Part shown: positions 12,082 through 52,525 of the stretch, piece after piece
Layout of the letters: each line of letters starts with the position of its first letter
How positions within the stretch are numbered: position 1 is the stretch's first letter
Source: a virus
Strand: one strand, 5' to 3'
Virus record (IMG/VR): IMGVR_UViG_3300028920_000006
Span: 7,843 to 71,842 of that record
Length of the DNA stretch: 64,000 bases
Translations under genes and position numbers: made by a program
The notes under the pieces: model-generated
What the model saw: the letters and a program-made list of their open reading frames with translations, nothing else
The model's database searches: none
What the model was told of the DNA's origin: nothing

Positions 12082-12851
12082 ATATACTCCAGTATCCCTC
12101 CTTTGTCAGATTTACTTAAAAAGTCTTTCACTGCTTTTTTGTTGTTCTTATCTAAAACTCTTAGTGCTGCTATCTCACAATACTTTTCCTCGATCTCGAT
12201 GCCGATTGCCTTGCGGCCAAGGTCTTTCGCAGCGCGCAGCGTCGTGCCGCTGCCCATGAAGGGGTCGAGGATAGTGTGCAATTTACCGCCCTTGTGATCC
12301 GCCACGCCAATACACCAAGAAATAACCTCTGTTGGCTTTTGTGTCGGGTGTACACGTGGCTCCTTGCGCCGTCCCGGTTCCTGCAGCATACCGTTCCATC
12401 GGTATTTCACCCGGCGTACCGCCCCAGGCAGGTTGGTCCAAGCTAATTCGCAATCGGCAAAGTCCCCAGTATTATCTTTGTCCCACACTAGCCAGCACGA
12501 CGACGCGGGAACGGGATAATAATTGCCGCCGAAACAAATAGCATGCGCCCCAAGCGTTAATAGTTCCCAAAGCAACCCCCACTCGACCGCCTGTTTATCC
12601 CATTCGTTCGGCCCGTAATCAGTTGCTGCGGCCAGTTTTGTCCGCGAGAGTTGCCGCCGCTGATCGCCAGCGTTAATTCCATACGGCGGATCCGTCAGCA
12701 CCAGATCCACCTTCGGCAAGTCCGGCAGTATCTCGCGGCAATCTCCGTGGTAGATTGTTACCAGTTTGTCTTCGTAGTATGGCTTAGGAAGAGTTCCTTT
12801 TTGTCCGCTTCCTTTTCTTGATGAAGAGTACTTTGTCCTTTTCCTTGTCAT
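12078..12851 (-). CDS. DNA N6-adenine/N4-cytosine methyltransferase (beta class)
   Basis: TDPPY, HPTQKP, LDPFMGSGTT, IGIEIEEKY. Confidence 0.92.
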   Translation of the reverse strand: MTRKRTKYSSSRKGSGQKGTLPKPYYEDKLVTIYHGDCREILPDLPKVDLVLTDPPYGINAGDQRRQLSRTKLAAATDYGPNEWDKQAVEWGLLWELLTLGAHAICFGGNYYPVPASSCWLVWDKDNTGDFADCELAWTNLPGAVRRVKYRWNGMLQEPGRRKEPRVHPTQKPTEVISWCIGVADHKGGKLHTILDPFMGSGTTLRAAKDLGRKAIGIEIEEKYCEIAALRVLDKNNKKAVKDFLSKSDKGGILEYI

Positions 12852-13182
12852 ATCTGATCTTCCCACGTTTGAACTCCCGTAGGATTGCCATGAACGGTCT
12901 TATGTTGGAAACAGAACGGTTTGCTTGATGACTCACATTAAACACTTCTTCAAACATTTTAATGGAATCATCATCAGGGAATACAAGCGTCACTGATCTA
13001 CCACTGGCGGGATGTCTGGCTTCGTACTCAGCTTCTTCCCCTGTATAAGTCGGTAAAGATTCCGGCTTGAGCAGAGTACGTTCCAACTTCCGTATCTCGG
13101 CTTGTGACTTGCACTTCTTCTTAAGCCGATGGAACTTGACCACCCTGCTTTCGGTGTCAACAAAGTCACTGATGCCCATCAC
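12784..13182 (-). CDS. hypothetical protein
   Basis: 132 aa ORF directly after clamp gene. Confidence 0.55.
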   Translation of the reverse strand: MMGISDFVDTESRVVKFHRLKKKCKSQAEIRKLERTLLKPESLPTYTGEEAEYEARHPASGRSVTLVFPDDDSIKMFEEVFNVSHQANRSVSNIRPFMAILREFKRGKIRYDKEKDKVLFIKKRKRTKRNSS

Positions 13183-26159: not shown

Positions 26160-26470
26160 CGTAGCCCTCCACGTAGCGGTCTACGTAGCGGTATTTCTTT
26201 CCATCTTTCTTGCACTGTATTCAGATTGATGCCTGTTAGTAGTGTCGTCGTGCTCCCTTGCCTTGCCATACCAGTCGCCCAAAGCACCCACAATAGCAAA
26301 ACCCTATGCCCTTTGCAAGCCCTAAAAAACGGCCTACAATGGCGCACAAAGGACAAACACAAGCAAAGGTATAGCAACACCTTACCCAAACCCCCGGTCC
26401 GCTGTAGGGCATTGTAGCGTGTTATACGTGTGTGGCTTGTGCAGGGGTTTAACTACAGGGGGTTAACCCA
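26160..26470. promoter_or_regulatory. non-coding element related to 30730-31200
   Basis: Shares 19-mer CGGCCTACAATGGCGCACA (26330-26348 = 30965-30983), CTACGTAG and GGGGTTTAAC; low GA/TC. Confidence 0.5.
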
Positions 26471-26941
26471 TTAAACCACACTGAAGATCTCATGAAATTC
26501 CCCGTCTTCTTTGTAGTACCCACAGGTCACGTTACCATGGTCGTTTACCACGCAGAACGTTTCGTGAGGTTGTACCGTCGGCGGGCATTCCGGTTGATCC
26601 ATTGTGGGCATGTCGTTGAAGACAGGGTTATCTTCCTTTGCGCTCTCGACTGCAATGTACAGCCCAAAGTCACCCTCGTACCACCCCCAATAGTGGTACT
26701 CTCTTTCTTCCAGTGTGTTAAGGTAGTCTTCGGCTTCCTGTACCACATCGAAGAGGACGTAGTGGTCTTCCTGTGTTAAACCCTCTCGTCCTCTTTCCAC
26801 TATGCGGTCTGCGTCCCCTTCGGGATCTTCGTATCCAAAGCCTATAGCCATGGATATCACTTCGATACCAATGTCTTCTGATCCCCTCGCGCTGTCGAAG
26901 TAGCAACCGATCGGCGGTTCACCATAGTCTTCTTTGCTCAT
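26471..26941 (-). CDS. acidic hypothetical early protein
   Basis: GGAGGAG RBS; D/E-rich, VVNDHGNVT. Confidence 0.6.
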   Translation of the reverse strand: MSKEDYGEPPIGCYFDSARGSEDIGIEVISMAIGFGYEDPEGDADRIVERGREGLTQEDHYVLFDVVQEAEDYLNTLEEREYHYWGWYEGDFGLYIAVESAKEDNPVFNDMPTMDQPECPPTVQPHETFCVVNDHGNVTCGYYKEDGEFHEIFSVV

Positions 26942-27340: not shown

Positions 27341-27658
27341 CTACGGGCCTATGTGGATGGCCGTTTGCAATTCGTGTTTCGATAGGGTTATCTCTGTACC
27401 CAACTGACATTCTATGTAATAACGTTTGTTTCTGTCCACATAGTAAACGATGCTATGCCATCCCGCCATCTTGTGAGGTTCGTAGTGTTTTCGTTCTCGT
27501 GTGTACCAACACATCCCTACGTGTGGTTGATGACTTCTGGCACTTAACCATGCAAGCGAAGATCGCACACAAGGAGTGCCATATGGTTTGCTGTTGATAC
27601 TGGTACAGCCAGTCAACAGCAAAACCATACAGATGATCACTACTATGATCGCCTTCAT
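27341..27658 (-). CDS. putative lipoprotein
   Basis: MKAIIVVIICMVLLLTGC lipobox. Confidence 0.6.
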   Translation of the reverse strand: MKAIIVVIICMVLLLTGCTSINSKPYGTPCVRSSLAWLSARSHQPHVGMCWYTRERKHYEPHKMAGWHSIVYYVDRNKRYYIECQLGTEITLSKHELQTAIHIGP

Positions 27659-28032
27659 TTCTGCTTCCCTTCTCCTTTAAACGAAATGATAGCGGTACGC
27701 TCCCTCTGCCTGTACCACTTCTGCTGTCGTGGTGTCATTCTGCTGAACCTGCGTCGCCCCAAGAGACCATTGTTCTCGTGGAACATGGCATTCGGTTTGC
27801 ACTTCAGCTTGATGTCTTTGGGAATGATCCCGGCCTTCACCAAGATGTTTCCTATCTTGGTTTTGAAGGCTTCTTGACCCGCCGGTGTTTTGTCGGCGTG
27901 CAGATGGCTTATGCGTATCGTGTCATCACTGTACAGATAGACACTCCACCATTCCCAACGACCACACACCTTCTTGATCGCTGTCAAGCGGGGGTCGCGC
28001 TTGTGTGTAATGTGTGCTCTTCGTTCGTCCAT
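27655..28032 (-). CDS. hypothetical protein
   Basis: AAGGAG RBS before MDERRAH. Confidence 0.55.
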   Translation of the reverse strand: MDERRAHITHKRDPRLTAIKKVCGRWEWWSVYLYSDDTIRISHLHADKTPAGQEAFKTKIGNILVKAGIIPKDIKLKCKPNAMFHENNGLLGRRRFSRMTPRQQKWYRQRERTAIISFKGEGKQK

Positions 28033-28046
28033 TGTCTTCGTGCTCC

Positions 28047-28148
28047 TTATCTCATGCGCAGTGTTGCCCGCGGCTTCTTCTTTGACTTCTTCGTCGTCTT
28101 CCTTTTTACCCTCCTTTTCTTTTTCTTGTGTACTAGCCTGTCGCTCAT
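28047..28148 (-). CDS. 33 aa highly basic peptide
   Basis: MSDRLVHKKKKRRVKRKTTKKSKKKPRATLRMR; ATGA overlap; manual translation. Confidence 0.4.
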   Translation of the reverse strand: MSDRLVHKKKKRRVKRKTTKKSKKKPRATLRMR

Positions 28149-28381
28149 TGCTCACTGCCTTTCTTGTCGTATTCCCGCAGCTTACGTTCTGCCTCTTTCC
28201 ACTTGCGGTCTGCCTCGTACCACTTGCAGTCTGCTTCGTACCACTTACGTTCTGCCTCTTTCCACTTGCGGCCTGCTTCATTCCGCTTGCGGCCTGCTTC
28301 GTTCCGCTTGCAGTCTGCTTCGTACCACTTACGTTCTGCCTCTTCAAGCGCCCTAACCAACTTTTCGCGTTCGTCACTCAT
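28145..28381 (-). CDS. short paralog of the heptad-repeat protein (about 8 units)
   Basis: MSDEREKLV...KLREYD; GAGGAGGT RBS; near-identical 21-bp units to 9554-10063. Confidence 0.7.
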   Translation of the reverse strand: MSDEREKLVRALEEAERKWYEADCKRNEAGRKRNEAGRKWKEAERKWYEADCKWYEADRKWKEAERKLREYDKKGSEQ

Positions 28382-29808: not shown

Positions 29809-30127
29809 GTATTGTGCGCATATATGCGCCCTACGGGTTGTCGTTCTCTTCAACCTGTAACCTAAGCACATCTCTCTTCGCGTATTGCCAAAGCCACAGC
29901 CGCTTGCACTGTGGTATTGTGCAATGCACGCGCTAACTCGTGCTCGTCAATTACGTCTTGTTTTGTTGGCGTAAACAACCTGTCGTTAATCTCGCTAATT
30001 GCAATGGCAATTTCTTGAACAGCAAAATTAACATTGTCTTCGTCAAACATAACGTCGTCTTCGGTGTACTTTTTTGCCTTTGCCATACATACCCCCTAAC
30101 TATAGGGCGCATATATGCGCACAATAC
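29809..30127. repeat. perfect 25-bp inverted repeat pair (29809-29833 and 30103-30127) flanking one gene
   Basis: GTATTGTGCGCATATATGCGCCCTA and its exact reverse complement. Confidence 0.85.
29862..30086 (-). CDS. small acidic hypothetical protein
   Basis: GGGGG RBS; 74 aa. Confidence 0.6.
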   Translation of the reverse strand: MAKAKKYTEDDVMFDEDNVNFAVQEIAIAISEINDRLFTPTKQDVIDEHELARALHNTTVQAAVALAIREERCA

Positions 30128-30450
30128 TTTTACCGCCGCATAAGCCGGACGACCGACGATATTAGCCGTTGTGCCAGTGTGTTTGCCCTTAACCCAAGTA
30201 ACCCTAGGCAACCAACACGTAGTAGATCGTCGGGACTTTTATTACCCTGTAGCTGCTAGCCTAGCTGAGAAAGAACGAACGGCTTGTGGGGTATAACCCC
30301 TAAAACCAACGCTAGGGTAAACCGGTTTAACCCATAATGCAAACACTATTCCGGACGATTGCAAGTTTTTGCAACACCCTTGTATATGGTTAAACGCATA
30401 AAGTGTGCCACTCTTTCCCAACTCGGCCGGAAAAGGTATCACTTTCGTAG

Positions 30451-30730
30451 CCGTCCGCGTATCCGTCCGCGTATCCGTATCCGCCTGCGTATCCGTCCGC
30501 GTATCCGTATCCGTCCGCGTATCCGTCCGCGTATCCGTATCCGCCTGCGTATCCGTCCGCGTATCCGCCTGCGTATCCGCCTGCGTATCCGTCGCCATCC
30601 GCGTATCCGCCTGCGTATCCGCCTGCGTATCCGTCCGCGTATCCGCCTGCGTATCCGTCGCCATCCGCGTATCCGCCTGCGTATCCGCCTGCGTATCCGT
30701 CGCCATCCGCGTATCCGCCTGCGTATCCGT
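30451..30730. repeat. tandem array of 6/12/18-bp units built on CGTATCCG (23 copies of CGTATC)
   Basis: Direct inspection; could encode DT-repeat ORF 30242-30706 but no clear RBS. Confidence 0.85.
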
Positions 30731-30810
30731 CTACGTAGCCGTCGCTCGTTGTTTCTACGTAGCACTCACTCGTTGTATCTACGTAGCCGTCGCTCGTTGT
30801 ATCTACGTAC
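30731..30810. repeat. three 24-bp tandem repeats starting with palindrome CTACGTAG
   Basis: CTACGTAGCCGTCGCTCGTTGT-like units. Confidence 0.8.
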
Positions 30811-31212
30811 CACTAAATCGTCGTAAATTGCCAGTGGTTTAACCAGCTTACCCTAATAAAAATTATTATGGCTTTATACACCCCCTACACACCCCCGGTT
30901 TAACCCCCACCACACAAAACGCCCGCCAATACGCCAACACCCCCTGTACACACCCCACCAAAACCGGCCTACAATGGCGCACACGGCCTTAAAACGGCTT
31001 ACCCTATACCTACACATACCCCAATATTGCAGGCCCGTATAGCGCATTGTGGGGCATTACCCCCTACAATGGCCCACAATGCCGTTTAACCGGTTTAACC
31101 CCCCCCGTATAGGGTAGGTATAGGTGCACGGGGGGTGTAACCCCCTACAGGTTAAACTGCGGCCTTGTAGGGGGTGTTGTGGCGGGGTTTAACCTGTAGG
31201 GGGTGTAGGGGC

Positions 31213-31253
31213 AAACAAAAACCCCCTGCTACCCGGTATAGGTAGCAGGGGGT
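31213..31253 (-). terminator. rho-independent terminator
   Basis: 13-bp stem ACCCCCTGCTACC/GGTAGCAGGGGGT followed by TTTTGTTT on minus strand. Confidence 0.8.
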
Positions 31254-31290
31254 AAACCCTGCGGGGTGTGGTTAAACCCCGCGTTACGGG

Positions 31291-31608
31291 TTAGCTGGCC
31301 TTTGCCAGCTTGTGGGCCTTGGGGTTTATTTTGGCACCGTTAGCGGCCAGCTTGCGCAGTGCCAACCGCACGTTGCGGTTAGCCAGCGCCCAGCTTATAG
31401 GTGCAAACCTTTTTGCCACCATGTTAGCCAAGTGGCGGCGGCCCTTGTTACCGTGCTGTGCGTGTATGCTGGCCACGTAAGCCGCAATGGTTTGCTTGCC
31501 GTTGCGCGTACCCTTGGCTTTGCCCTTGCTGGCCTTGGCTTTGCCCTTGCTTGCCTTGTTGCTGGCCTTGTTGCCCTTGTTGCTTGCCTTTTTTGTGCGT
31601 GTTGCCAT
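31291..31608 (-). CDS. 105 aa Lys/Ala-rich basic protein with no Asp/Glu (H1-like)
   Basis: AAGGTG RBS, MATRTKKASNKG..., terminator immediately downstream. Confidence 0.7.
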   Translation of the reverse strand: MATRTKKASNKGNKASNKASKGKAKASKGKAKGTRNGKQTIAAYVASIHAQHGNKGRRHLANMVAKRFAPISWALANRNVRLALRKLAANGAKINPKAHKLAKAS

Positions 31609-31778
31609 TTTATACACCTTTATACAGTGGTTTAACCCATTGTGGGTTAAACCGGTTATACCGCTATGCGCAATACGGTATTGCGCATACCAAACCAACC
31701 AAACTATACCATAAGCGTACCCCTTAACTATGCCATGCCCCGTGGCCTTATACCCGTTACCAGTATGCGTAATGCGGT

Positions 31779-32042
31779 TTAACCCGCCGTTTTGCCCGCC
31801 AGTAGGTTTTGCACTGCTGCACGGGGTGTAGGCCCATACGCCACTACCCAGCCCATACCCGGCGGCCATGCCGCCCACCTGCTTGCACTGGCTGGGCCTA
31901 CCCGGCACAATACCGTGCCGCACTGCGCACACGTTACTGTTGCGTAGTGTGTGTGGCTGTAGGGTACACTGTGCACCCAATAATATTTGTATGGCATACC
32001 GGGCCTGTACATAACGGGTATGCCGTGCGTGTGTTGTACCAT
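31779..32042 (-). CDS. 87 aa Asp/Glu-free protein (CAQC)
   Basis: GGGGG RBS 7 nt before ATG; TAA stop. Confidence 0.55.
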   Translation of the reverse strand: MVQHTHGIPVMYRPGMPYKYYWVHSVPYSHTHYATVTCAQCGTVLCRVGPASASRWAAWPPGMGWVVAYGPTPRAAVQNLLAGKTAG

Positions 32043-32105
32043 GGTTTAACCCCCTGTTTGTGTGTTGTGGTTTAACCTGTTGTATACCGCTATGCGTAAT
32101 GCGGT

Positions 32106-32300
32106 TTAACCCGCCGCTTGCGTGGCCAGCATGGCCTGTACCTGCGCATGGTATGTAGGCGCATACTGTATGGGTTTGGTGTGCCAACCACGGCCTACCC
32201 GTATAATTTTTACCCTGCCCGCGCCCGCAGTTAAACCCGTACCCTTTGCCCTTACCCGCACTACCGTTACCTGCCGTGGTGCCGCAAACAATACCAGCAT
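32106..32300 (-). CDS. 64 aa Asp/Glu-free basic protein
   Basis: GGGGG RBS 5 nt before ATG; first ORF with an RBS after the promoter. Confidence 0.55.
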   Translation of the reverse strand: MLVLFAAPRQVTVVRVRAKGTGLTAGAGRVKIIRVGRGWHTKPIQYAPTYHAQVQAMLATQAAG

Positions 32301-32415
32301 ACACACCCCCTATGTTACCTGCAGGGGCAATACCACATAGCGCAATACCGTATAGCGCAATGCCTACCCCCACCGCGTTAATTAACCTGTATGTTACCCG
32401 TACCAACATGCCGCT

Positions 32416-32445
32416 ATAATAGGTTAAACCAGTTTAACCATGCAA
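32416..32445 (-). promoter_or_regulatory. sigma70-type early promoter TTGCAT-N18-TATTAT with A/T-rich upstream element
   Basis: Spacer is exactly two GGTTWAAC-like 9-mers; sits at the head of the leftward arm. Confidence 0.6.
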
Positions 32446-32802
32446 GTACTTTTTGCATAAAAACAAAGAATAGTTGTAAACCCCTACGGTTTAACCGTTT
32501 ACAAGGAAAGAAATAATTATTTATACACCCTAATAATTTGTAGCTATTTACAATACATGTAAATACATGGTATAAACCACGCCGTAGCGCAAGCTGTAGC
32601 CAAGCTGTAGCCAAGTGTATAAATAAATGCAAAAAATACATAACCGGTTAAACCATGTACAAGCATCGTCACCACTAGGCTATACCCCTACCCGTAGCAT
32701 ACCCAATAATAGTAGCGTGTGTGTGGGCCACAGCCCCACACAACACCCCAAAACTATGTTGCTGCACAGCCCTAACCATGCCCCGGTTAAACCGCAAAAC
32801 TA

Positions 32803-32850
32803 CCCCCATTACAAATACGTTATACACCCCCATTACAAATACTTTATACA
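32803..32850. repeat. 24-bp tandem duplication
   Basis: CCCCCATTACAAATAC(G/T)TTATACA twice. Confidence 0.75.
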
Positions 32851-32980
32851 CCTTAATACGCACGGCAGTTTGGGTTTGCGTGGTGGGGGTCGCTCCCCCC
32901 TCTACAACCATGATCTAGAAATGAGGATAAGTAACCGTGACCTCAATATCATCATCAAAAAAAATGGTAGGATGTGTCAT

Positions 32981-33637
32981 ATGAAACATATAGTGGGATT
33001 TTCAGGGGGGAAAGACAGCACGGCTATTCTACACTTGCCTCCGATATGTGATCTCCCCAGAGAAGACACTATTCTCCTCCACTTTGAATGTGACTGGGAT
33101 TTCCCTCAGATGGTGGATCATTTGAAACTGGTAGAAGAGAAAACAGGGCTGGAAATCGTAAGGGTACGCTACTATCGTCATTTCAATGAACAGCTTGGGG
33201 TTTTCGGTTGGCCCAGATCAAATGGTGGATGGTGTACAGCGTGCAAACAGATGACATGCCAAAAATATATTCGAGGGGTCAGAGGTCCCAAGACAGAGTA
33301 TGTAGGTTTTGCAGCGGATGAAGTACACAGGACGGAAACCAAATGGGTGAAGGAGAGAAAGTGGCCTATCTGCTTTCCGTTGATTGATTTAGGTATGAAT
33401 GAGAATGATGCCCTTTCGTTGTGTTTGGGGTTGGGATATGATTGGGATGGGTTGTATGATATCTTTGATAGAGTCTCTTGTTGGAACTGTGCCAAAGCTG
33501 GAAATCACAAGAGAGACAAGATTAAGAAGCATTTCCCAGAACTGGAACTAGAGTGGAAGAGGTTGGACATTATTGCAGCAAGAGCAGAGCAGGGAATAAA
33601 CAACCGGAGAGTTCGTACTCGGAGGTCCAGACAGTGA
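32981..33637 (+). CDS. PAPS reductase-like (PP-loop) protein
   Basis: FSGGKDS, WCTACK, GFAADE..R, FPL, RVSCWNC. Confidence 0.85.
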   Translation: MKHIVGFSGGKDSTAILHLPPICDLPREDTILLHFECDWDFPQMVDHLKLVEEKTGLEIVRVRYYRHFNEQLGVFGWPRSNGGWCTACKQMTCQKYIRGVRGPKTEYVGFAADEVHRTETKWVKERKWPICFPLIDLGMNENDALSLCLGLGYDWDGLYDIFDRVSCWNCAKAGNHKRDKIKKHFPELELEWKRLDIIAARAEQGINNRRVRTRRSRQ

Positions 33638-43309: not shown

Positions 43310-43873
43310 ATGGCAACACGCACAAGAAGAGCGAGAGCAAAGAAGAAAAAGAAGAGCAATAAACCTTTTATCCCCAAATACAGATTTCGTGTGATCAGTG
43401 GGAGGCATTACGAAAGGGTTGATGTACCCGGTAAGAAGAAGCGAATACAAGAGGTATTCACAGCCGGGATGGTATTTGAGTCTTTCCGGAGACTGGATAA
43501 GATATTTGGAAATAAACTCAGGTATCTTGGACTGTCCAAGGAAGAACCCGAAGTAGATGAGGTCGAAGAAGATGCCCCCGACACTGAGGAAGAGCGCGTG
43601 GATAGCGACGAGGACGAAGACGAAGACGCGGAAGAAGAAGAGGACGAGGAAGAAGACAACGACGATGACGAAGTAGATGGGGCTGACGACGAAGAAGACG
43701 ACGATGACGAAGACTCAAACGTTGTTCAGTACCGTATGAAACATCGAGGTGGTGGTCGATGGTGGGTAGTCCCATGCAACACAGTCACAGGTGATATTGT
43801 GGGCGAACCTGTCCACGACGGTTATCTCACCAGAGAAGCCGCTATCAAACTGCTTGAAGATATGGAAAGCTAA
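43310..43873 (+). CDS. basic N-terminus plus acidic tract protein after capsid gene
   Basis: MATRTRRAR..., about 55-residue D/E-rich tract; AAGGAG RBS. Confidence 0.7.
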   Translation: MATRTRRARAKKKKKSNKPFIPKYRFRVISGRHYERVDVPGKKKRIQEVFTAGMVFESFRRLDKIFGNKLRYLGLSKEEPEVDEVEEDAPDTEEERVDSDEDEDEDAEEEEDEEEDNDDDEVDGADDEEDDDDEDSNVVQYRMKHRGGGRWWVVPCNTVTGDIVGEPVHDGYLTREAAIKLLEDMES

Positions 43874-46800
43874 TGGCGGACACGAGACAGTTTGTATCGT
43901 ATTGGACCATCCCCATTCTGTGGCCTGATGCGACTGTATTCATAATTGGAGGTGGTCCCAGTCTAGAGGGGTTTGACTGGGACCCCTTCACCAAAAGGCG
44001 TGTGATAGGTTGCAATGATGCCTATACGCTGGGACCATGGGTCGATGTGTGTTTCTTCTGTGACTATTCGTGGTTCAAGGGTACTCACCATTTCCCGGGA
44101 CATGAACGTCTTGGTTTGATGGATTTCCAAGGTTTAAAGGTTGCTTGTGTAGAACACCCCTTATTTGACAAGCGTATAAAAGAGGTTCGCCGTCAGACAC
44201 GGCGTCAGGGTATCTGGGACCAGCCGGACAAGCTGTGCTGGAACTTGAATACGGGAGCCACTGCGATCAATCTGGCTGTGCATCTGGGTGCGAGCCGAAT
44301 AGTGCTCTTGGGGTTTGATATGAAACTGTCCCCCGAGGGAAGCATGAATTGGCATGAGAACAGCAAGGACCGTCCTAACCCCGGCGTGTTTGATAAATTC
44401 TATGAGGGGTTTAAGGCAGTGAAAAGAGACCTTGATGAACGGTGGCCTCAGGTGGATGTTCTCAATGCCGGTCCAGATAGTGACTTGGATGTGTTCCCCT
44501 TTGTGGATACGTGTGACATTCTTAAGGAAAAACCTTCGCGAAGGAAGAAGCGCAAAGTGAAGACATACATAGGACCGAGGAAGCCCAAACCTCCGGTAAT
44601 ATCTGTGCTGTGTCCAACCAGACAGAGAGCAAGGATGTGTAGGGACTTTGTGACAAGCTTCTACGAAAAGGCCGCTCGCCGTGATGCTTTGGAAATCATA
44701 CTGTACATTGATCATGATGATCCCGACATGAGAGAATACAGGAACTTGATCAATGATATCCACTGCAAGATGATTGTGGGCAAGTTGGGGCAGGAAGGTG
44801 GAGATGTGGTGGGTAAGGCGTGGAACCTGATGGCAAGGGAAGCCAAAGGTGAGTTCCTGATGATGGGCAATGATGACCTGTTTGCTGTCACACAAGGATG
44901 GGACAACATTCTACGCAAGAATGCTAAAGACTATGAGGATGGTATAGCTTGCTTCTGGTTCAACGACGGTATCCATACTACTGGGAAACATTGTGCGTTC
45001 CCCATAGTGTCTCGTGAGTGGTACGAGTGTCTTGGTTATTTCATGCCGGAGTGTTTTGAGTTCTTCTGCCATGACACGTGGGTCTTTGATATAGGCAAGA
45101 GGATAGGACGTTTGTGTTTCATGAAGGATGCTACAGTAGAGCACAGACACTTTTCCACAGGTAAATCTGAACGTGATTCCACTACAGCAAGGAATCGTGG
45201 CAGGAGTCAGAACAAACATGATCTGCAGACACTGAACAAAACGGCGGCGCAACGTGCTGAAGACGCCAAGAAGTTGATGGGTATCATTAAGCAGAGCTCT
45301 GATATATATGAATATGATACCAGACTCAAAAACATGCTCCATGGAAAGACTGTTGCACTTGTGGGGCCAGCACCTACTCTGATGGGCAAACGCAAGGGGA
45401 AAGAAATAGAGCAATACGATGTCGTATGCCGTGTGAACGAATTTGTACCATTCGGAGCAGAAGAGGATTACGGTAGTCGTACAGACATTGTGTTCAGTAG
45501 TGGTTCGGACACTGTGATGGCTCAGTTGGAAACAGCCATGGACAGCAATGCTTTCTTAGCAAACAAACTAGGATTCATGGTCGCAGCACAACTTGCTCAC
45601 AATGATGAAGGGAATGTGCTTGGAAACTTCCATAGGTTCTATGTGAAGTATGGAACTTCCATCCACCATGTTGGTGATGCATTCTGGCATTCCTTGGCGG
45701 CAGACATGGGGAGCAGTCCCACCACAGGATACGTCGCTTTACAGATGTTGAGGAAATACAAGGTCAAGAAGATACTTGTGGCCGGTTTCACCTTCTACGC
45801 AGATGAACTCAAAGTGAAGGGGGACCATCCTTATCACAGCCCTGCCTATGTAGAGTGGGGAGGTGAAATAGATAAGTCTATCCCGGTGAAATATCATCAG
45901 ATGGAGCCAGAACGCCAAAGCTTCGCTACGATGGCCTGTAAGGATTCGCGAATTTGGGTGGACAGTGTACTGGCTACACTGTTCAAACTGGACACAGAGC
46001 GCGTATGGGACGTCACAGAGGCCTCACCAGTGCACCCACTATACCATAAGCACAAGCAGCTTGCTGAACTTGTAGATGGGAAGCGTGTTGCTATAGTGGG
46101 TCCTAGTCCACATTTAATGGGTGAGGGGATGGGTAGAGAGATAGATGGTTATGATGTAGTTTGCCGTGTGAACGAACTATTGCCCTTTGGGTGCGAGGAA
46201 GACTACGGCAGTCGCACAGATATCATCTTCCATTGTTGTGGTCAGTACAGTATTCCCAAGTTAGAAAAGACCATGATAGCAAAATCGGATGTTGCAGATC
46301 GTGTCCAGCTTCTGGTCTGTCCACAAGATGTGACAAATGACCCGAGGGCAAACAACACTCCATTCCATGCTATAGGCAAAGACTACTGGTGGGATCTGAA
46401 CCGACGTGTGGGTGCGATTGGTTGTGCCACGGGACTCTTGTCTGTAGCTCTGTTACTAGAGAAATACAGACCCAAGGAATTGCTGGTCACAGGCTTCAGT
46501 TTCTACAGTCAGGGTTTGGAACCAGAGCAGCGGCACAACCCGGGATATATAAAGTGGGGCGGTGATCATTCTGCAAAACAGAAGATGGAGGATAATGTTC
46601 TAGCCCAAAACGCCCAACATAATCAAGCTCCGCAGAAAGCCTTCTTCAAGAAGCTTGCTAAAAAGTATCACAAAAAATTGCGGGTGGATTCCTTCTTGAG
46701 CGGTTTACTGCATCTGGATTCGCCTAATGTGTTGCAGTTGAGAAAACGTGTCTATGCTATCTATAGAGCTTTCTATGGTGCTGATTTCTTGGAACAGTCC

Positions 46801-47547
46801 ATACGTTCTATAATAGACCACGTGGATAAGGTGTTTGTATTCTGGACAAACAAAGCGTTCGCAGATGTGACTGAATGTGTGTTCAAGGGTAGTACTGTGA
46901 AGTTCCCACGTAAGATAGACAATGTGGTGGAAGTGGCAGAAGCCGTCAGGGAGGTATACCCTGATAAGGTGGAAGTGATTTTTGACCATTGGGGTCTACC
47001 GGATAACCAGTACACTCATCTGTTTAACGATCGTGTGCTTCCTTATCATCCTAGGCCGGATATGGTGATGTTCTGTGAACCTGATCAAGTGTGGAACGAA
47101 GCTCAGTTGATGTTGGCATTCAGGGAAATGGAAGAACTGAGAACGGGTGTCAGCAGACAGATTGAATTATGGAAGGACCTCAACTGGAGAATACCTGAAC
47201 GACCAAAACGGTATGGGACCATCTTTTGGAACCTTAGAGGTATGACTGAGATACCTGTGACTGGTAAGGGAGGGTCCATACGCACACGCGACCGGTTGGA
47301 TGCTCATGTCCACAACCTTGGGTTCTGTGTAAGTCCGGTGACCATGTTCTGGAAACATCTTCTTGCCATTGCCTTCAGTAAGAAGATAGGAGATAGTCAA
47401 CCAAACGAGGATTGGTATTTCGACAAGTGGGTTGGATGGAATGAAAACGGGAACAACAAGAACTTGGCAATCTCAAAAGGACACGAAGCAGACATTCCAT
47501 ATGCAGCACCGTATGATGGGGCTGGTCTGCCGGACGTACTGAAATGA
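43873..47547 (+). CDS. multidomain glycosyltransferase: DUF115/Maf-like + GT2 + two GT29 sialyltransferase-like + GT-A-like domains
   Basis: IIGGGPSL..GCND..LLGFD; LCPTR..IDHDD..GNDD; twice VG P..G.EI..YDVVCRVN..DYGSRTDI; C-terminal FLEQSIRSI..EPDQVW. Confidence 0.75.
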   Translation: MADTRQFVSYWTIPILWPDATVFIIGGGPSLEGFDWDPFTKRRVIGCNDAYTLGPWVDVCFFCDYSWFKGTHHFPGHERLGLMDFQGLKVACVEHPLFDKRIKEVRRQTRRQGIWDQPDKLCWNLNTGATAINLAVHLGASRIVLLGFDMKLSPEGSMNWHENSKDRPNPGVFDKFYEGFKAVKRDLDERWPQVDVLNAGPDSDLDVFPFVDTCDILKEKPSRRKKRKVKTYIGPRKPKPPVISVLCPTRQRARMCRDFVTSFYEKAARRDALEIILYIDHDDPDMREYRNLINDIHCKMIVGKLGQEGGDVVGKAWNLMAREAKGEFLMMGNDDLFAVTQGWDNILRKNAKDYEDGIACFWFNDGIHTTGKHCAFPIVSREWYECLGYFMPECFEFFCHDTWVFDIGKRIGRLCFMKDATVEHRHFSTGKSERDSTTARNRGRSQNKHDLQTLNKTAAQRAEDAKKLMGIIKQSSDIYEYDTRLKNMLHGKTVALVGPAPTLMGKRKGKEIEQYDVVCRVNEFVPFGAEEDYGSRTDIVFSSGSDTVMAQLETAMDSNAFLANKLGFMVAAQLAHNDEGNVLGNFHRFYVKYGTSIHHVGDAFWHSLAADMGSSPTTGYVALQMLRKYKVKKILVAGFTFYADELKVKGDHPYHSPAYVEWGGEIDKSIPVKYHQMEPERQSFATMACKDSRIWVDSVLATLFKLDTERVWDVTEASPVHPLYHKHKQLAELVDGKRVAIVGPSPHLMGEGMGREIDGYDVVCRVNELLPFGCEEDYGSRTDIIFHCCGQYSIPKLEKTMIAKSDVADRVQLLVCPQDVTNDPRANNTPFHAIGKDYWWDLNRRVGAIGCATGLLSVALLLEKYRPKELLVTGFSFYSQGLEPEQRHNPGYIKWGGDHSAKQKMEDNVLAQNAQHNQAPQKAFFKKLAKKYHKKLRVDSFLSGLLHLDSPNVLQLRKRVYAIYRAFYGADFLEQSIRSIIDHVDKVFVFWTNKAFADVTECVFKGSTVKFPRKIDNVVEVAEAVREVYPDKVEVIFDHWGLPDNQYTHLFNDRVLPYHPRPDMVMFCEPDQVWNEAQLMLAFREMEELRTGVSRQIELWKDLNWRIPERPKRYGTIFWNLRGMTEIPVTGKGGSIRTRDRLDAHVHNLGFCVSPVTMFWKHLLAIAFSKKIGDSQPNEDWYFDKWVGWNENGNNKNLAISKGHEADIPYAAPYDGAGLPDVLK

Positions 47548-48578
47548 AATCTACTGAAGAACATAAGTACACATCGACAGGTGTGAAGTTCTGGCGTCAC
47601 CCGGAACAGATGTTGAACTATCGAGAAGGTTGTGGTGAGACCGCGATTTCCACCCACATATCTCCGGAGGGGTCATGCAATCTGAATTGTTCTTACTGCT
47701 CAGTCAAGAAACGAAACAGTCGGAAACTACGAATACCCCTGAACACAATACAGTGTTATGTCTCAGAACTCCTGGACAGGGGTTTGAAAGCAGTAATCCT
47801 GACCGGTGGAGGCGAACCCCTCCTATACCCATGGATCAACGAACTTGTGGAGTGGTTGCTTGGTTGCGGGTTGAAGATAGGTTTGATCACTAACGGTACA
47901 ATGTGTGATAATCTACAGAAGTCTAATTGGCAACAGTTGTCGTGGACACGTGTGAGTTTGAACATGGGATATCTGGATAAAGTATACCTGCCAAGAGAGT
48001 ATACAAAGGATGTCGTTGTGGGATGTTCTCTGATAACAGAACGGCGGTATGACTGGAAGGAGTTTGTGGATGTGGCAGTGACAGCGACTTGTATAGGCGC
48101 AAAGTACATCCGCCTTCTTCCCAACTGTTTGTTGGATACAGAAGATATGGCACTGGAGCACGAGTGGTTGGAAAGGATCACTCCATTGCTTAAAGACACT
48201 GTGTCTAGTCTTTTCTTCCATCAACATAAAAACCATAGGGCTCCTGATTGCAGGACGTGTCACCAGTCTTATTTCAGACCATACCTCAGTGAAGAGAGGT
48301 ATTGGAGAACAGGCAAGCCGGGGAGTGTTTTCCCTTGTGACAGTGTTGTATTGAATAGTCATGCTGAGAAGTTCATGTCTAAGTTCCAACTCTGTTCTCC
48401 AAAGGAAATAGGAGCTTTCTTGGATGGGCACAAGTTACCACGGTTTGATCCTAGGAATGATTGTGCAGGATGCGTTTTTACGGATACAGTGGAAATGTTG
48501 GGTCGTTGGAAAGACAGGGGTACTGTGGATATGTTAGCCGAATATGAAAAGCCTGTCGTCCATGAGGAGTTTGTATGA
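47544..48578 (+). CDS. radical SAM protein with C-terminal Cys cluster
   Basis: CNLNCSYC, TGGGEP, ITNG, FPC..CAGC. Confidence 0.88.
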   Translation: MKSTEEHKYTSTGVKFWRHPEQMLNYREGCGETAISTHISPEGSCNLNCSYCSVKKRNSRKLRIPLNTIQCYVSELLDRGLKAVILTGGGEPLLYPWINELVEWLLGCGLKIGLITNGTMCDNLQKSNWQQLSWTRVSLNMGYLDKVYLPREYTKDVVVGCSLITERRYDWKEFVDVAVTATCIGAKYIRLLPNCLLDTEDMALEHEWLERITPLLKDTVSSLFFHQHKNHRAPDCRTCHQSYFRPYLSEERYWRTGKPGSVFPCDSVVLNSHAEKFMSKFQLCSPKEIGAFLDGHKLPRFDPRNDCAGCVFTDTVEMLGRWKDRGTVDMLAEYEKPVVHEEFV

Positions 48579-49219
48579 ACCCCAATAAATACAATGAGGA
48601 TTACTACGAGCGGGGAGTAGCAACCGGGTCCAGTCTCTATTCCTGCTACAGGTGGATCCCTGAGTTGACCATACCCCTCGCGGCGCGGCTAGTGGAGTCA
48701 CTTCATATTCACAGAACTGACAGGATACTGGACTTTGGATGTGCCAAGGGTTTCTTGGTCAAAGCATTGCGTCTTCTGGGCTATAATGCCTACGGGATAG
48801 ACATCAGTCGCTATGCCATAGAAAGCGCTCCTGTGGATGTACAGCCTTATCTGGAATGCACCGAGAGTGTGATAATGTCCCATATGAATCATTGGGATTG
48901 GGTGATAGCAAAGGATGTATTGGAGCATCTGGAGTCAAAAGCACTCAAAGGGATTTTGGCGGAGTTGGCAGGATCCACGAGACATCTGTTTGTGGCGGTC
49001 CCACTTGGGGTAGATGAGCGTTACAACATACCATCATACGAGTTGGACATAACCCACGAAATTCGGGAACCCCTCGCATGGTGGACACAAGCATTGACAA
49101 AGAGCGGATTTACGGTTTCTGTTGCAAAGTACAGGATGCCGGGGGTAAAGGATAATTGGGCGAAGTACGAGAAGGGGAACGGGTTTCTAGTGGCACACAC
49201 TGAAAGAGGAAAGAAATGA
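48575..49219 (+). CDS. class I SAM-dependent methyltransferase
   Basis: ILDFGCAKG, GIDIS, DVLEHL. Confidence 0.88.
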   Translation: MNPNKYNEDYYERGVATGSSLYSCYRWIPELTIPLAARLVESLHIHRTDRILDFGCAKGFLVKALRLLGYNAYGIDISRYAIESAPVDVQPYLECTESVIMSHMNHWDWVIAKDVLEHLESKALKGILAELAGSTRHLFVAVPLGVDERYNIPSYELDITHEIREPLAWWTQALTKSGFTVSVAKYRMPGVKDNWAKYEKGNGFLVAHTERGKK

Positions 49220-50646
49220 TACCGAAAGTACTCCATTTCGTGTGGATCGGTGAGCCTATGCAACCATGGCTCAGAGCCAATCTTAGTAGATGGCAAAAGA
49301 TTAACCCAGAATGGGAAATACGAATCTGGGGGCAAAATGCCCTTAGTAGGCGTTATGAATCCCTTTATGACCGAATACAGGTGTCACAACGGGCCTCTAG
49401 TGGCCCTGATGCACCGGACCTGTGTACCCGTTCTGACATACTACGTTTGTCCGTCCTGCGGCGGTATGGGGGATTCTACTTTGATTGTGATTTCGTACCA
49501 TTGCGTCCGATGTCTTATTTGCTGTCTAAATATGGGCGTATGGAAGGTGCTTTCTTTTCCAAGCAGTGGGAGGAAGGACCAAAGAGAATTGCCAATGGTG
49601 TAATGGGTATGATGCCCAAAACAGATGGTTCCCCTCTGTGGGATGCTGTTGACCGTATAGTTGAAGAACATTCGGAAGGTAAAATACAGAGGACTAGTTT
49701 TGGGCCGTTATTCACAACGCGTCTAACTATAGAATACCCTGAGGTCATAATTGGTGAAATAGATGATTTCTACAAGATACGCTTCCAGCCGAAAGGGAAT
49801 GCAGTTAAACAGTATCTGAAGATACTGAAGACTGATTTTGACGCACAGACGCTACGAAGTGTATTCGGACGGGAGCTTCCGTTTGCCATGCATCTATGGA
49901 TGGGGAGGCAGGATTATCACAACAAGGCTTTGAACACTCAGGCAAAGCATATGGAACAGATAACCGATCGTGGTATAAAATCTACCACGTCTGTTCCAAA
50001 GAAGTTTGCTGTGGCTTGTGTGTTGAAAGATGGCCCTGACTACAATGAGGAGTACGTGAGGCGGCTTGTCCATGGATGTGAATGTTCATTCACCGGGGAC
50101 CATGATGTTGTGTGTCTTTCGGACAAACACATTGACGTTCCATGCAAGGTTGTCAAACTTCGTCACAACTGGCCGGGATGGTGGAGCAAGATTGAGTTGT
50201 TCAGGCCAGATGTATTTGAAGAGTACGAACGTGTAATCTACTTGGATCTGGATACTGTGTTGGTGGGTAACACCGATGGTCTCGTGTCGCATCCATGTCG
50301 GTTTGCCATGCTCCACGGCTTCCGCAAACCTGAACGCCGTGCGAGCGGGATCATGGTATGGGAAGGAGACTTCAGTAAACTTTACTATCAGATGGTCAAA
50401 CAGGAACGCCAGATATTGGTGGATGAGAAAGCATGGGATCAAGTGTTCATAGCGGATAACGTGCGTGAGTACTACTGTGAACCTGATCTGGTACAGGATA
50501 TGATTGATGGTGTGGTTTCTTACAAGAACCATGTTCGCGGGAAGGGTGGTCTGCCAAAAGGAACAAGGATAGTTTGTTTCCACGGTAGACCCAGACCTAT
50601 GGCTGTATGTGATGAATACGACTGGATGAAGGAGTTTTGGGGATGA
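49216..50646 (+). CDS. two-domain glycosyltransferase (GT32-like + GT8-like)
   Basis: IPKVLHFVWIG, SDILRL..YGGFYFDCD; GWWSKIELF, YLDLD, FHGRPRP. Confidence 0.82.
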   Translation: MIPKVLHFVWIGEPMQPWLRANLSRWQKINPEWEIRIWGQNALSRRYESLYDRIQVSQRASSGPDAPDLCTRSDILRLSVLRRYGGFYFDCDFVPLRPMSYLLSKYGRMEGAFFSKQWEEGPKRIANGVMGMMPKTDGSPLWDAVDRIVEEHSEGKIQRTSFGPLFTTRLTIEYPEVIIGEIDDFYKIRFQPKGNAVKQYLKILKTDFDAQTLRSVFGRELPFAMHLWMGRQDYHNKALNTQAKHMEQITDRGIKSTTSVPKKFAVACVLKDGPDYNEEYVRRLVHGCECSFTGDHDVVCLSDKHIDVPCKVVKLRHNWPGWWSKIELFRPDVFEEYERVIYLDLDTVLVGNTDGLVSHPCRFAMLHGFRKPERRASGIMVWEGDFSKLYYQMVKQERQILVDEKAWDQVFIADNVREYYCEPDLVQDMIDGVVSYKNHVRGKGGLPKGTRIVCFHGRPRPMAVCDEYDWMKEFWG

Positions 50647-51287
50647 TGGCGAATTGGCAGAAACATGGTCTGATTTTGATGGGTATGGTGGAGGTCAAGG
50701 ACAAGACCGTCGCTGACATCGGATGCGGAGATGGTTGGGCTTCTGTTGAACTGAAACACCGTGGAGCCATCGTCACTGCTGTGGACATCCTTCCCGAAGG
50801 ACACTACAAGTTGGATAGGATAGTTGAGCAGGGTATACATTATTCCAGTCTAGGTATTCGTGGGTTGGAGGGGGAGCATTATGATCTAGCGTGGTGTTAT
50901 CATGTGTTGGAGCACATACCAAACCCTACACTGTTCTTGTCTGATATTCGCAAGGTGGCTGATGTGTTGTGTCTGGCCGTTCCCAAGTGTACTCCAGAAG
51001 GGTTTGCAAAAGGTCACATCAATATGTATAACATGCCTCTTCTTGTTGAACACCTGCGGAGAGGCGGCTGGGATGTTGAGCATGGTCAATACACTATCTA
51101 TCCTGGGCCGAAAGTAGGAGCACTCTGGACCATTGTGAGTAGTCACGAAGGTTACATGTTTGAAGACCAGTCTACATATGCAAAGTATCCTGAGCCTATG
51201 AATGCTCTTAATGTAGAGGGTGAGAATCATTTGCGGAATGAGATGTATGAATGGAATTGGAATGGTTCCATACGCAAAGAGGAATGA
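50643..51287 (+). CDS. class I SAM-dependent methyltransferase
   Basis: ADIGCGDG, HVLEHI. Confidence 0.85.
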   Translation: MMANWQKHGLILMGMVEVKDKTVADIGCGDGWASVELKHRGAIVTAVDILPEGHYKLDRIVEQGIHYSSLGIRGLEGEHYDLAWCYHVLEHIPNPTLFLSDIRKVADVLCLAVPKCTPEGFAKGHINMYNMPLLVEHLRRGGWDVEHGQYTIYPGPKVGALWTIVSSHEGYMFEDQSTYAKYPEPMNALNVEGENHLRNEMYEWNWNGSIRKEE

Positions 51288-51294
51288 AACAACC

Positions 51295-51960
51295 ATGCGA
51301 CCTATGCACATAACGATTTGTGGGTATCCTAGAGCAGGAACTAGTCTAATCCAACATATGCTCCAAGTTAGTCTAGGCCCCAACTTCGTATCTACCATGG
51401 GAGATGAAATATCTGCTTTGGATGCAGTGGGTATTGACGAACGTAGTCGGGTTACTAAGAGACCCCTGGACATATTTCGTATTGGTAACATACGTAGAAA
51501 GAACAAGAATGGGTTCAACAAACAATTAATCTTCCTGTTGATGGTGCGTGATCCCAGATTTGTATTGACTTCACGCCATGAAAAAGTTAATGGGAAGTAT
51601 CTCATTCGGTATGATATGGGCGGGGTTGAATCAGCAGGATTAGTAGCAACCCACAAGTCAGTCATACACCATAAGAATGATGGTGATTGTTTGGTGGTGA
51701 AATACGAATACATGATCAACAGTCTCCAAGCAGTTGAAGATAAGTTGAAGGGGTTTGGAGTGCCTATCATATGGCCTATGGCTGATTATGTGAAGGTTGA
51801 ACAATATCACCCCGGTGAGCAGCAGAAACCGTTACACAGACCGCTGTCAACCGCGAGGAAGGGATTGACCCCCGGTGACCAAGTCTATTTGAACAGGCAG
51901 ATTGCGGAGTGTCCATACATTAACCAGATGATAGAGGATTTCGGTTATGACCACACGTGA
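51295..51960 (+). CDS. sulfotransferase-like protein
   Basis: ICGYPRAGTS PAPS-binding loop, VRDPR..S, VKYE. Confidence 0.72.
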   Translation: MRPMHITICGYPRAGTSLIQHMLQVSLGPNFVSTMGDEISALDAVGIDERSRVTKRPLDIFRIGNIRRKNKNGFNKQLIFLLMVRDPRFVLTSRHEKVNGKYLIRYDMGGVESAGLVATHKSVIHHKNDGDCLVVKYEYMINSLQAVEDKLKGFGVPIIWPMADYVKVEQYHPGEQQKPLHRPLSTARKGLTPGDQVYLNRQIAECPYINQMIEDFGYDHT

Positions 51961-52525
51961 AGAAGTAATTCAAAAGTGGACCGGGCCAAAAAGTCTCAAC
52001 CTGTTGTATCCCGGGAAGTGTGTGTGGCCGGATTCTGATTGTGAAGATATGATCTTGGATTTGTGCACTCCTGGATTTGTTGCTGAGATAGGGTGTGGCA
52101 ACGGTAGGGTGGCGAACGTACTGAACCCGAAGATGTATATTGGGGTGGACATCAACGAGCGAGCTATAGAACAGGCAAGGAAGAATTGCCCGGAGCACAA
52201 TTTCCGCTGTATAGGTTATGATGATGATTACCCTATCGCAGATATGTACTTGTTCTATACAGTGCTACTTCATGTGAGGGATGAGGACTTACCTTCTGTA
52301 ATAGAAAGGTGTCACGAAGCCAACAAGGTAATAGTGTTTGAATCTATGTGTCCAAGACTACGAAATCATGGGGATGATTTCCAACGGGGTATGGATGACT
52401 ATGATCAGGTATTCAAACAATATGGATGGGAACTAGATTTTTACGTCAGGAAACTTTCTGATTCGTGGCCTCACTTCAGAGATTATGCTGTGTGGCGAAA
52501 CCTAACCAAAGGAGAAGAAGGATGA
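51947..52525 (+). CDS. class I SAM-dependent methyltransferase
   Basis: AEIGCGNG, GVDIN, VLLHV. Confidence 0.82.
   Translation: MTTREEVIQKWTGPKSLNLLYPGKCVWPDSDCEDMILDLCTPGFVAEIGCGNGRVANVLNPKMYIGVDINERAIEQARKNCPEHNFRCIGYDDDYPIADMYLFYTVLLHVRDEDLPSVIERCHEANKVIVFESMCPRLRNHGDDFQRGMDDYDQVFKQYGWELDFYVRKLSDSWPHFRDYAVWRNLTKGEEG

Follow-up and report, generated by a model that had tools for sequence, protein, structure and literature searches.

Why should a phage keep about 2 kb of its genome free of a single dinucleotide step, and what is encoded by DNA written under such a constraint? The locus that raises this question lies in a window of 64,000 nt, i.e., the whole stretch of DNA analysed here (bases 7843–71842 of the 71,842-bp IMG/VR record IMGVR_UViG_3300028920_000006), which represents an uncultured phage, probably from a marine sediment metagenome; this was the one DNA sequencing run listed as containing the stretch, and no RNA run was listed. 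All positions given below refer to this window. Its most conspicuous element is an island without GA and TC, in which the initial annotation had pointed out three open reading frames (ORFs), namely ORF64, ORF87, and ORF105, as basic proteins lacking Asp and Glu that might be first-made anti-defence or DNA-coating factors. Based on the analysis described in the following, we tentatively favour another reading, which we rate somewhat below an even chance: a GA/TC-purged regulatory hub with a leftward unit encoding one DNA-binding regulator, ORF105.

A local ban on GA and TC

The uninterrupted GA/TC-free run comprises 1,647 bp (30822..32468) with 0 GA/TC versus about 217 expected from the density of the window (0.132 per position), and it is unique in the 71,842-bp genome. 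The whole GA/TC-poor island extends over 2,068 bp (30822..32889) and reveals 5 GA/TC versus about 273 expected, the five exceptions being located at 32468, 32506, 32510, 32666, and 32669. Directly to the right of the 1,647-bp run follow the next longest GA/TC-free runs of the window, with 221 and 156 bp. Across the entire genome, free runs of the nine remaining strand-symmetric dinucleotide classes reached at most 391 bp, and in 116 unrelated viral loci used as control (1,009,638 bases, mostly chance loci from a paired-site DNA-pattern scan and none with an island), the longest GA/TC-free run was 147 bp. The observation is real and lies far beyond chance. Furthermore, the probable source run was assembled a second time, and a Logan contig from it (10,533 nt; depth about 80) spans positions 30748–33400 with 0 differences, so that the sequence is independent of one assembler. 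A keyword search of the open-access literature led to no description of GA/TC-free islands or of acid-free phage proteins.

The ban, as we call this absence, is local to the island, since the whole genome carries 9,484 GA/TC. An avoidance throughout the genome was ruled out by the normal density outside the island, and the footprint of a hypermutating deaminase is unlikely, as the G+C content of the island (54%) exceeds that of the genome (about 49%) and the coding frame is kept. Intergenic gaps elsewhere revealed an ordinary GA/TC density of 0.10–0.16, with the exception of a second, GA/TC-poor mini-island (26275..26483; 2 exceptions in 208 bp). It is located between two ORFs of the left gene arm and has the words GTTAAAC, CCCCCTGTAG, and CTACAATG in common with the main island. 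Since the other gaps are normal and the mini-island shares these words, the ban seems to be tied to this class of regulatory DNA and not to intergenic DNA or promoters in general.

All three ORFs pointed out before, ORF105 (31291..31608), ORF87 (31779..32042), and ORF64 (32106..32300), were recovered on the minus strand with 0 Asp and 0 Glu each. Both residues are missing because all of their codons begin with GA, and synonymous sites, codon junctions, and non-coding DNA are subject to the ban as well, just as the initial annotation had stated. Synonymous re-coding of each ORF with the codon usage of the genome resulted in a mean of 14–88 GA/TC, and zero was obtained in 0 of 5,000 trials per ORF. 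Thus, it is the nucleic acid that is subject to the ban, and the lack of acidic residues in the proteins follows from it. What is excluded can be seen from 21 reference genes of this phage, in which Asp and Glu make up 13.3% and Lys and Arg (K+R) 14.7% of the residues, and in which codons with GA or TC account for 60% of Ser, 66% of Phe, 33% of Ile, 22% of Gly, and 26% of Arg. A GA step reads as TC on the complementary strand, which makes a cause at the DNA level the simplest one, and the conclusion that selection acts on the DNA, synonymous sites, codon junctions, and non-coding DNA included, is sound.

The leftward unit and its product ORF105

The island fills a 2.2-kb gap between two divergent gene arms and is a hub between a leftward early/replication arm and a rightward packaging/structural arm. 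About 30 bp separate its right end from where the first rightward gene probably starts; this gene encodes a PP-loop protein similar to 3'-phosphoadenosine-5'-phosphosulfate (PAPS) reductase (32921..33637, plus strand) and is followed by terS and terL. The minus-strand unit opens the leftward arm and ends with a strong terminator. Its status as first-made, in turn, is a candidate one, derived from this position and from a promoter identified by eye.

The hub is marked by a short repeated site. Sites similar to GGTTTAACC (≤1 mismatch) are concentrated in 30290–32793, where 26 of the 41 distinct sites of the window are located; counted by strand, 59 matches were found versus 12.1 expected (0 of 100 shuffles). 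Three palindromic pairs of such sites were detected, one in the spacer of the putative promoter, one 5' of the ribosome-binding site of ORF105, and one beyond the terminator. The putative promoter is sigma-70-like (TTGCAT-18-TATTAT, 32416..32445, minus strand) with 8 of 12 consensus matches, the canonical TTGACA being forbidden by the ban since it contains GA. An inverted-repeat search identified its spacer as a palindromic pair of the GGTTTAAC site (32422..32439), and its −10 element ends 6 nt 5' of an ATG at 32409, which would allow a leaderless start. The second pair, GGTTTAACC-7-GGTTAAACC (31629..31653), lies about 14 nt 5' of the ribosome-binding site of ORF105, in a region (31600–31800) that as RNA displays a folding z of −2.8. 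At the other end of the unit, an intrinsic-terminator-like hairpin with a T-run (31221..31253, minus strand; 14 pairs, 9 of them G-C) is found 38 nt 3' of the ORF105 stop, followed by a perfect 18-bp inverted repeat with a 29-nt spacer (31140..31204; 100% complementary) that contains a GGTTTAACC-like site. In addition, the island harbors five copies of TTTATACACC and several other repeats. No Rfam family at gathering score and no tRNA were found.

ORF105 is the sole firmly supported coding segment of the island. Its codon score ranges from +11 to +21, whereas the other frames score negative; the periodic log-likelihood amounts to +10.2 versus −22 and −7 in these frames, and the period-3 z is 7.0 (0 of 1,000 shuffles). 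A ribosome-binding site (AAAGGTG) is located 6 nt 5' of the ATG. With a K+R content of 25.7% versus 13.7% in ORF372 (the longer frame described below) and 14.7% in the reference genes and an isoelectric point (pI) of 12, ORF105 alone is basic beyond what the loss of acidic residues forces. The description of all three products as basic therefore holds for ORF105 only, since ORF64 and ORF87 reach 14% and 6.9% K+R, respectively; the net positive charge of these two results from the missing acids and not from an enrichment of Lys or Arg. Overall, the candidate products have pI values of 9.6–12.

The AlphaFold2 (AF2) model of ORF105 displays a disordered 40-residue tail of K/A/S/N repeats followed by a domain of three helices (residues 41–52, 57–68, and 73–90), with a predicted local distance difference test (pLDDT) score of 70–79 over residues 41–90. 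Among the top rows of a Foldseek search, none of them significant, proteins of winged-helix/helix-turn-helix (HTH) type prevailed (RRE, Lrp, ArgR), and a linker histone (7dbp_K) appeared at rank 41 with an E value of 4.1. The neighbours in the ESM Atlas are also of winged-helix/HTH type, with a best score of 0.83, which is a lead at most, and clusters of DUF3489 and HARE-HTH follow further down. Searches against Pfam (E ≤ 0.1), PHROGs, and NCBIfam remained blank, and a PDB sequence search gave nothing meaningful. The term "H1-like" used in the initial annotation fits the K/A repeat composition and describes a compositional likeness and not membership in a family, as no Pfam hit and no significant Foldseek hit was obtained. 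Based on tail and helical domain, ORF105 is probably a DNA binder; it may bind to the hub and regulate its own expression. The phage's own genome revealed no paralogue of ORF105, the best non-self tblastn match having an E value of 0.03.

ORF105 also forms the last 105 codons of a longer stop-free frame of 372 codons (ORF372; 31291..32409, minus strand; public gene call P0001), within which an alternative in-frame start would yield 192 aa (31291..31869, minus strand; AGGTG 6 nt 5' of the ATG). In the regulatory hub favoured here, the leftward unit would be a self-contained transcription unit, running from the putative promoter with its palindromic-site spacer to the strong terminator. ORF105 may be made alone and may also form the C-terminal domain of longer proteins that begin in the same frame at 31869 or 32409, and it would act as a DNA-binding regulator or architectural protein on the repeated sites of the hub. 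Under the ban, finally, the hub would escape an enzyme activity by which the TC/GA step is read or marked.

Further repeats were observed around the unit. The left edge of the island is abutted by a tandem array (30446..30825) in which a 12-bp unit, CGTATCCG(Y)C(Y)G, occurs about 22 times and is followed by four copies of a 24-bp unit; its plus strand contains 48 TC and 0 GA. The array is iteron-like and open in four reading frames ("TD-repeat" ORF 30242–30706), and it may serve as an origin or as a binding array for a protein. The Logan contigs on either side of it differ in mean depth (178.6 over 30000–30480 versus 79.5 over 30748–33400), which might be due to mixed strains, a shared module, or an assembly join over the repeat. 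Further to the left, a perfect 14-bp palindrome, GCGCATATATGCGC, occurs twice (29816–29829 and 30107–30120), flanking a small acidic ORF on the minus strand (start at about 30095), and is probably another operator pair. On the right side, direct repeats (32584–32619, an 11-bp unit 3.3 times; 32802–32852, a 24-bp unit 2.1 times) just upstream of the PAPS-reductase-like gene, terS, and terL are candidates for terminase-binding (cos/pac) or late-promoter elements.

Points against and competing explanations

A number of results weigh against a regulatory hub of this kind. A consensus promoter scan did not report TTGCAT-18-TATTAT. The mean pLDDT of the ORF105 model is only 65, and Foldseek with this model resulted in 0 hits at E ≤ 0.001 against the PDB. 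Homologues of ORF105 were detected neither in a viral-contig scan nor in a word-indexed protein search, and phmmer against 1.84 billion representatives retrieved only ORF105 itself. Likewise, homologue searches with residues 1–267 of ORF372 and with the shorter proteins returned the query itself or nothing. The AF2 model of ORF372 is not usable (mean pLDDT 41.5; <50 over residues 23–234). Upstream of ORF105, the coding evidence is in conflict, since the open frame of ORF372 stands against start signals in another frame: inside the unit, five of six clusters resembling a Shine-Dalgarno (SD) sequence are followed by an ATG at 4–9 nt (15 of 5,000 shuffles reach five), while outside the unit this applies to 0 of 14 clusters. 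Two of the pairs inside start ORF64 and ORF87, and ORF64 displays a period-3 z of 2.6 and a G1-high/G2-low pattern in its own phase.

To the same side belong the relatives and the enzymes searched for. Among relatives of TerL, 0 of 8 viral-contig and 0 of 21 metagenome-contig loci carried an island, the longest GA/TC-free run being 81 bp; these relatives shared at most 51% identity, except one fragment without upstream DNA. Nor was an island present at the loci of the closest homologues of the PAPS-reductase-like protein (0 of 5; 62–64% identity; longest run 55 bp). A six-frame profile search of the whole genome led to 0 matches at E ≤ 1 for Tet_JBP (PF12851), ParB_N (PF02195), thymidylate-synthase-like proteins (PF00303), TGT (PF01702), and C5-methyltransferases. 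Pfam and PHROGs scans of every window ORF of at least 60 aa and of 14 ORFs of at least 100 aa in the other 7.8 kb revealed no enzyme for thymidine hypermodification (hydroxymethylase, kinase, or transferase). Apart from that, no relative of TerL was found in genome contigs and none of the left-flank protein 27655–28377, no cultured phage matched at the DNA level (TerL ≤38% identity), and a DNA-pattern scan for a 21-nt repeated element gave 0 hits.

Regarding the cause of the ban, we infer that a context-specific DNA modification by the phage itself is most likely, followed by a host activity that meets this DNA first. Enzymes with a matching preference are known: the T-dioxygenase 5mYOX97 prefers NTC (PMC13229309), and hypermodified T in TG/TC is indicated by sites that resist restriction in phages M6, ViI, and phiW-14 (PMC6449724). 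The route via 5-hydroxymethyldeoxyuridine (5hmdU) is reported to rely on genes for a thymidylate-synthase-like hydroxymethylase, a 5hmdU DNA kinase, and a transferase (PMC8989533, PMC6449724). In the present genome, an N6-adenine methyltransferase, an adjoining SPL-like radical S-adenosylmethionine (SAM) protein, the PP-loop enzyme, and possibly a glycan cluster are the remaining candidates for a modification; the SPL-like protein revealed no BLAST link to the M6-type enzyme. One may go further and suppose that the 2-kb hub was rewritten without one dinucleotide step because of an undescribed activity reading or marking TC/GA, with an acid-free pioneer factor working from the exempt DNA. We regard this bolder version as unlikely. 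The activity could be a new phage modification chemistry, perhaps involving the adjacent PP-loop protein, the N6-adenine methyltransferase, or the SPL-like radical SAM protein, or a new host defence, and at least 105, perhaps 372, codons would be written in a protein alphabet of 18 residues.

A host enzyme is central to another explanation, according to which the island is packaged last and injected first, and has been purged of the enzyme's TC/GA target for the time until early products appear. Candidates would be a TC-specific deaminase, a thymine ADP-ribosyltransferase, a nuclease, or a modification-dependent restriction enzyme. The location directly upstream of terS/terL, the usual place of cos/pac, would fit, as would the direct repeats there, the local nature of the ban in a genome carrying thousands of GA/TC, and the lack of a phage TC/GA modification enzyme in the profile searches. 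A precedent is published: motifs in the first-injected region decide the restriction sensitivity, and motif-free leading regions occur (PMC12455610). Against this explanation, the genome ends are not fixed by the 122-bp repeat, which may merely reflect circular assembly, and the mini-island lies 4.3 kb inside the left arm, where a leading-end model does not predict it. Moreover, no defence is known to read a bare dinucleotide solely on incoming DNA. Altogether, we consider this explanation unlikely, on a par with the bolder version above.

With respect to the product, the frame of ORF372 may encode one acid-free protein of 372 aa from a leaderless mRNA, with a hydrophobic N-terminal helix, a long low-complexity linker, and a basic, DNA-binding C-terminal domain. 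It might be a membrane-tethered DNA organiser, presumably working like p16.7 of phage phi29. The frame length was reached in 0 of 2,000 shuffles (mean 131 codons, maximum 299), and the 267 codons upstream of ORF105 are free of stops, of which the other two frames contain 13 and 18 (0 of 20,000 shuffles). The public gene call corresponds to this ORF, the putative −10 element ends directly before its ATG, and its first 36 codons are codon-like (G1 0.46). At the N-terminus, hydropathy peaks at 1.64 over residues 11–29, and AF2 predicted a helix at residues 2–26. Taken as a whole, the upstream 801 nt reveal a period-3 z of 3.4 (5 of 1,000 shuffles). On the other hand, residues 23–234 are predicted to be unstructured (pLDDT 24–35), and the codon score is negative over 32240–32120, near zero down to 31850, and positive from about 31820 downwards. 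Strong or perfect palindromes and SD+ATG pairs are located inside the frame, and no homologue was found. We therefore judge a single protein of this length to be rather improbable; the rating is slightly lower than that of the first-injected island.

Still less can be said for three separate acid-free proteins of 64, 87, and 105 aa which, as first products, would cover or protect the genome or inhibit a host activity directed at GA/TC, as the initial annotation had proposed. Each ATG is preceded at 5–8 nt by an SD-like motif, and such pairs are enriched, with five observed. ORF64, which lies in another frame than ORF105 and comprises 64 aa from its ATG or 66 aa from a GTG at 32306, carries AGGGGG, the GA-free counterpart of GGAGG, 5–6 nt 5' of the ATG. 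With a codon score of +1.4 to +5.1 and its weak periodicity in its own phase, its coding signature is moderate, and it may be a real small gene. The unit's place at the head of the leftward arm and the motif-free leading regions that decide restriction sensitivity (PMC12455610) would also suit the proposal. ORF87, located in the same frame as ORF64, revealed almost no coding signature: AGGGGG is present 7–8 nt 5' of its ATG, yet the period-3 z is −0.8 and the codon score ranges from −0.4 to −9, so it is probably not a gene. Lengths are of no help here. Since no TGA is possible inside the island, random ORFs are long, the longest ATG ORF averaging 119 aa in 2,000 dinucleotide-preserving shuffles, and 64 and 87 aa thus carry no weight. 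In addition, the other frame is kept open across both ORFs, an enrichment of Lys and Arg is restricted to ORF105, and DNA mimicry of the Ocr/ArdA type is not possible for a protein without acidic residues. Nothing in our results supports an anti-defence role, as no anti-defence family, homologue, or structure match was found. We also rejected ORF64 and ORF87 as paralogues, because the similarity of their C-termini stems from a DNA element of about 32 nt that is repeated, includes the GGTTAAACC site, and fades within 80 nt. The three-protein proposal is consequently doubtful. Judged from the frames and start signals, nested in-frame starts together with one real out-of-frame small gene, ORF64, would be the simplest combined reading.

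Conversely, the hub could be mostly non-coding, with ORF105 as sole gene, the 800 bp upstream of it consisting of operators, a structured leader, and promoters, and ORF64, ORF87, and the long frame being by-products of composition. Operator-like sites and palindromes are indeed dense inside the putative coding DNA, the leader shows the folding mentioned above, the upstream codon statistics are weak, and the absence of TGA lengthens random ORFs. Nevertheless, so long a frame without stops greatly exceeds chance expectation, periodicity is seen over the 801 nt upstream taken together, and SD+ATG pairs are enriched, which leaves this explanation with a poorer standing than the three proteins. An artefact of assembly or sequencing, to which the single source metagenome and the change in depth across the tandem array might point, can practically be dismissed in view of the identical Logan contig from the same run and of an ordered transcription unit with a coding signature inside the island.

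Genome setting and known systems

The two arms adjoining the hub could be characterized by conserved domains. The left arm (left of about 30,700) is encoded on the minus strand and harbors genes for a sigma-like factor, a superfamily 2 (SF2) helicase, a primase, a DnaB-like helicase, a DPPY (N6-adenine) methyltransferase of the CcrM/DpnA class, an SPL-like radical SAM protein, a split PolA, a clamp loader with an intein signature, and a UvsX-like recombinase. The 7.8 kb outside the window add a 5'-3' exonuclease, an SMC/Mre11-like pair, and a DnaJ-domain protein; these bases complete the 71,842-bp record, which is rated complete and carries the 122-bp terminal repeat. The family A DNA polymerase (PolA) is present as two ORFs (5930–7312 and 7509–8759, minus strand) with a 67-aa ORF in between. 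The clamp-loader gene (3327–5426, minus strand) matches its family in two separate stretches, residues 6–106 and 495–657, and an Intein_splicing match (E 4e-12) was obtained in one left-arm ORF, which suggests that the clamp-loader gene carries an intein insertion. In 10636–12866 (minus strand), the DPPY methyltransferase, whose closest solved relatives are CcrM and DpnA, is immediately followed by the SPL-like radical SAM protein (PA0069/Rv2578c family, E 1e-12), the two overlapping. One left-arm ORF revealed a match to a pyrimidine-dimer glycosylase.

The right arm (right of about 32,900) is encoded on the plus strand and consists of the gene for the PAPS-reductase-like protein, terS, terL, and genes for portal and head, followed by a 10.6-kb cluster of glycan enzymes and the tail genes. 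The best PDB match of the PAPS-reductase-like protein is the entry "PptA", for which a keyword literature search led to no relevant paper. The enzyme cluster (43873–54452, plus strand) encodes a 1,224-aa protein with GT29 (sialyltransferase-like) and MptE-like parts, a radical SAM protein, three SAM methyltransferases, a glycosyltransferase of the DXD/TcdA-TcdB type, two sulfotransferase-like proteins, and a UDP-glucose/GDP-mannose dehydrogenase. The cluster may add glycans to virion proteins or to the cell surface, and DNA glycosylation is possible as well; its location between head and tail genes would rather suggest virion glycosylation, for which there is precedent. With regard to the whole genome, GGTACC occurs once (16.6 expected), CAGCTG not at all (10.1 expected), and GTTAAC once (13.5 expected), which suggests ordinary restriction-site avoidance of three six-base palindromes on top of the island.

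What the island means depends on its cause. Provided that the ban goes back to an enzyme reading just one dinucleotide step, phages or hosts with such an activity would be recognizable, from sequence only, by GA/TC-free islands, which would also mark DNA that must escape it. An island in a genome without known genes for thymine modification is separated from an explanation by these genes and would point to something undescribed. Independently of the cause, the island represents a natural experiment in protein evolution without acidic residues, and it is a warning for annotation, since random ORFs are long where TGA is impossible and small ORFs need more than an open frame.

Many copies of a short site near a promoter are known from the divergent control regions of the lambda type and from the stoperators of cluster A mycobacteriophages. 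As in these systems, the sites of the hub are repeated, partly palindromic or overlapping the promoter, and located beside a gene for a small protein with features of a DNA binder. A dinucleotide purge, on the other hand, is not a feature of those systems, and neither an HTH family match nor an integrase or other lysogeny gene was found here. Similar to linker histones H1/H5 and bacterial H1-like proteins with Lys/Ala repeats, ORF105 combines a Lys/Ala/Ser-rich repeat tail with a small helical domain, but it revealed no match to the Linker_histone profile, its tail is N-terminal, and its net charge is partly forced by the ban. The first-made anti-restriction proteins Ocr and ArdA are acidic DNA mimics with a strongly acidic surface, whereas the products considered here have 0 Asp/Glu and basic pI values throughout. 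Motif avoidance in the DNA that is injected first is reportedly also found in the first-step-transfer DNA of T5 and in the early region of T7.

Regarding modification, a TC-step enzyme as known from 5mYOX97 (PMC13229309) or from phages M6, ViI, and phiW-14 (PMC6449724) would explain why exactly GA and TC are missing, since it may act on either strand. TG/CA is not depleted here, which would be explained only by an activity specific for TC. The 5mYOX pathway relies on a dioxygenase of the TET/JBP type, with or without a ParB-like activator, and the 5hmdU pathway on a hydroxymethylase, a kinase, and a transferase; genes for none of these were found in this genome, and the accessible portions of both papers do not describe modification-free islands (PMC13229309, PMC6449724). 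A likeness in arrangement is offered by Murciavirus and its avoidance of a Type I restriction-modification (RM) motif (PMC12455610), where the target is absent locally at the head of the early genes as in the island. There, the avoided target is a multi-base RM motif and the order of DNA entry is known, whereas the phage described here lacks a whole dinucleotide step over 2 kb and carries a second mini-island inside its left arm.

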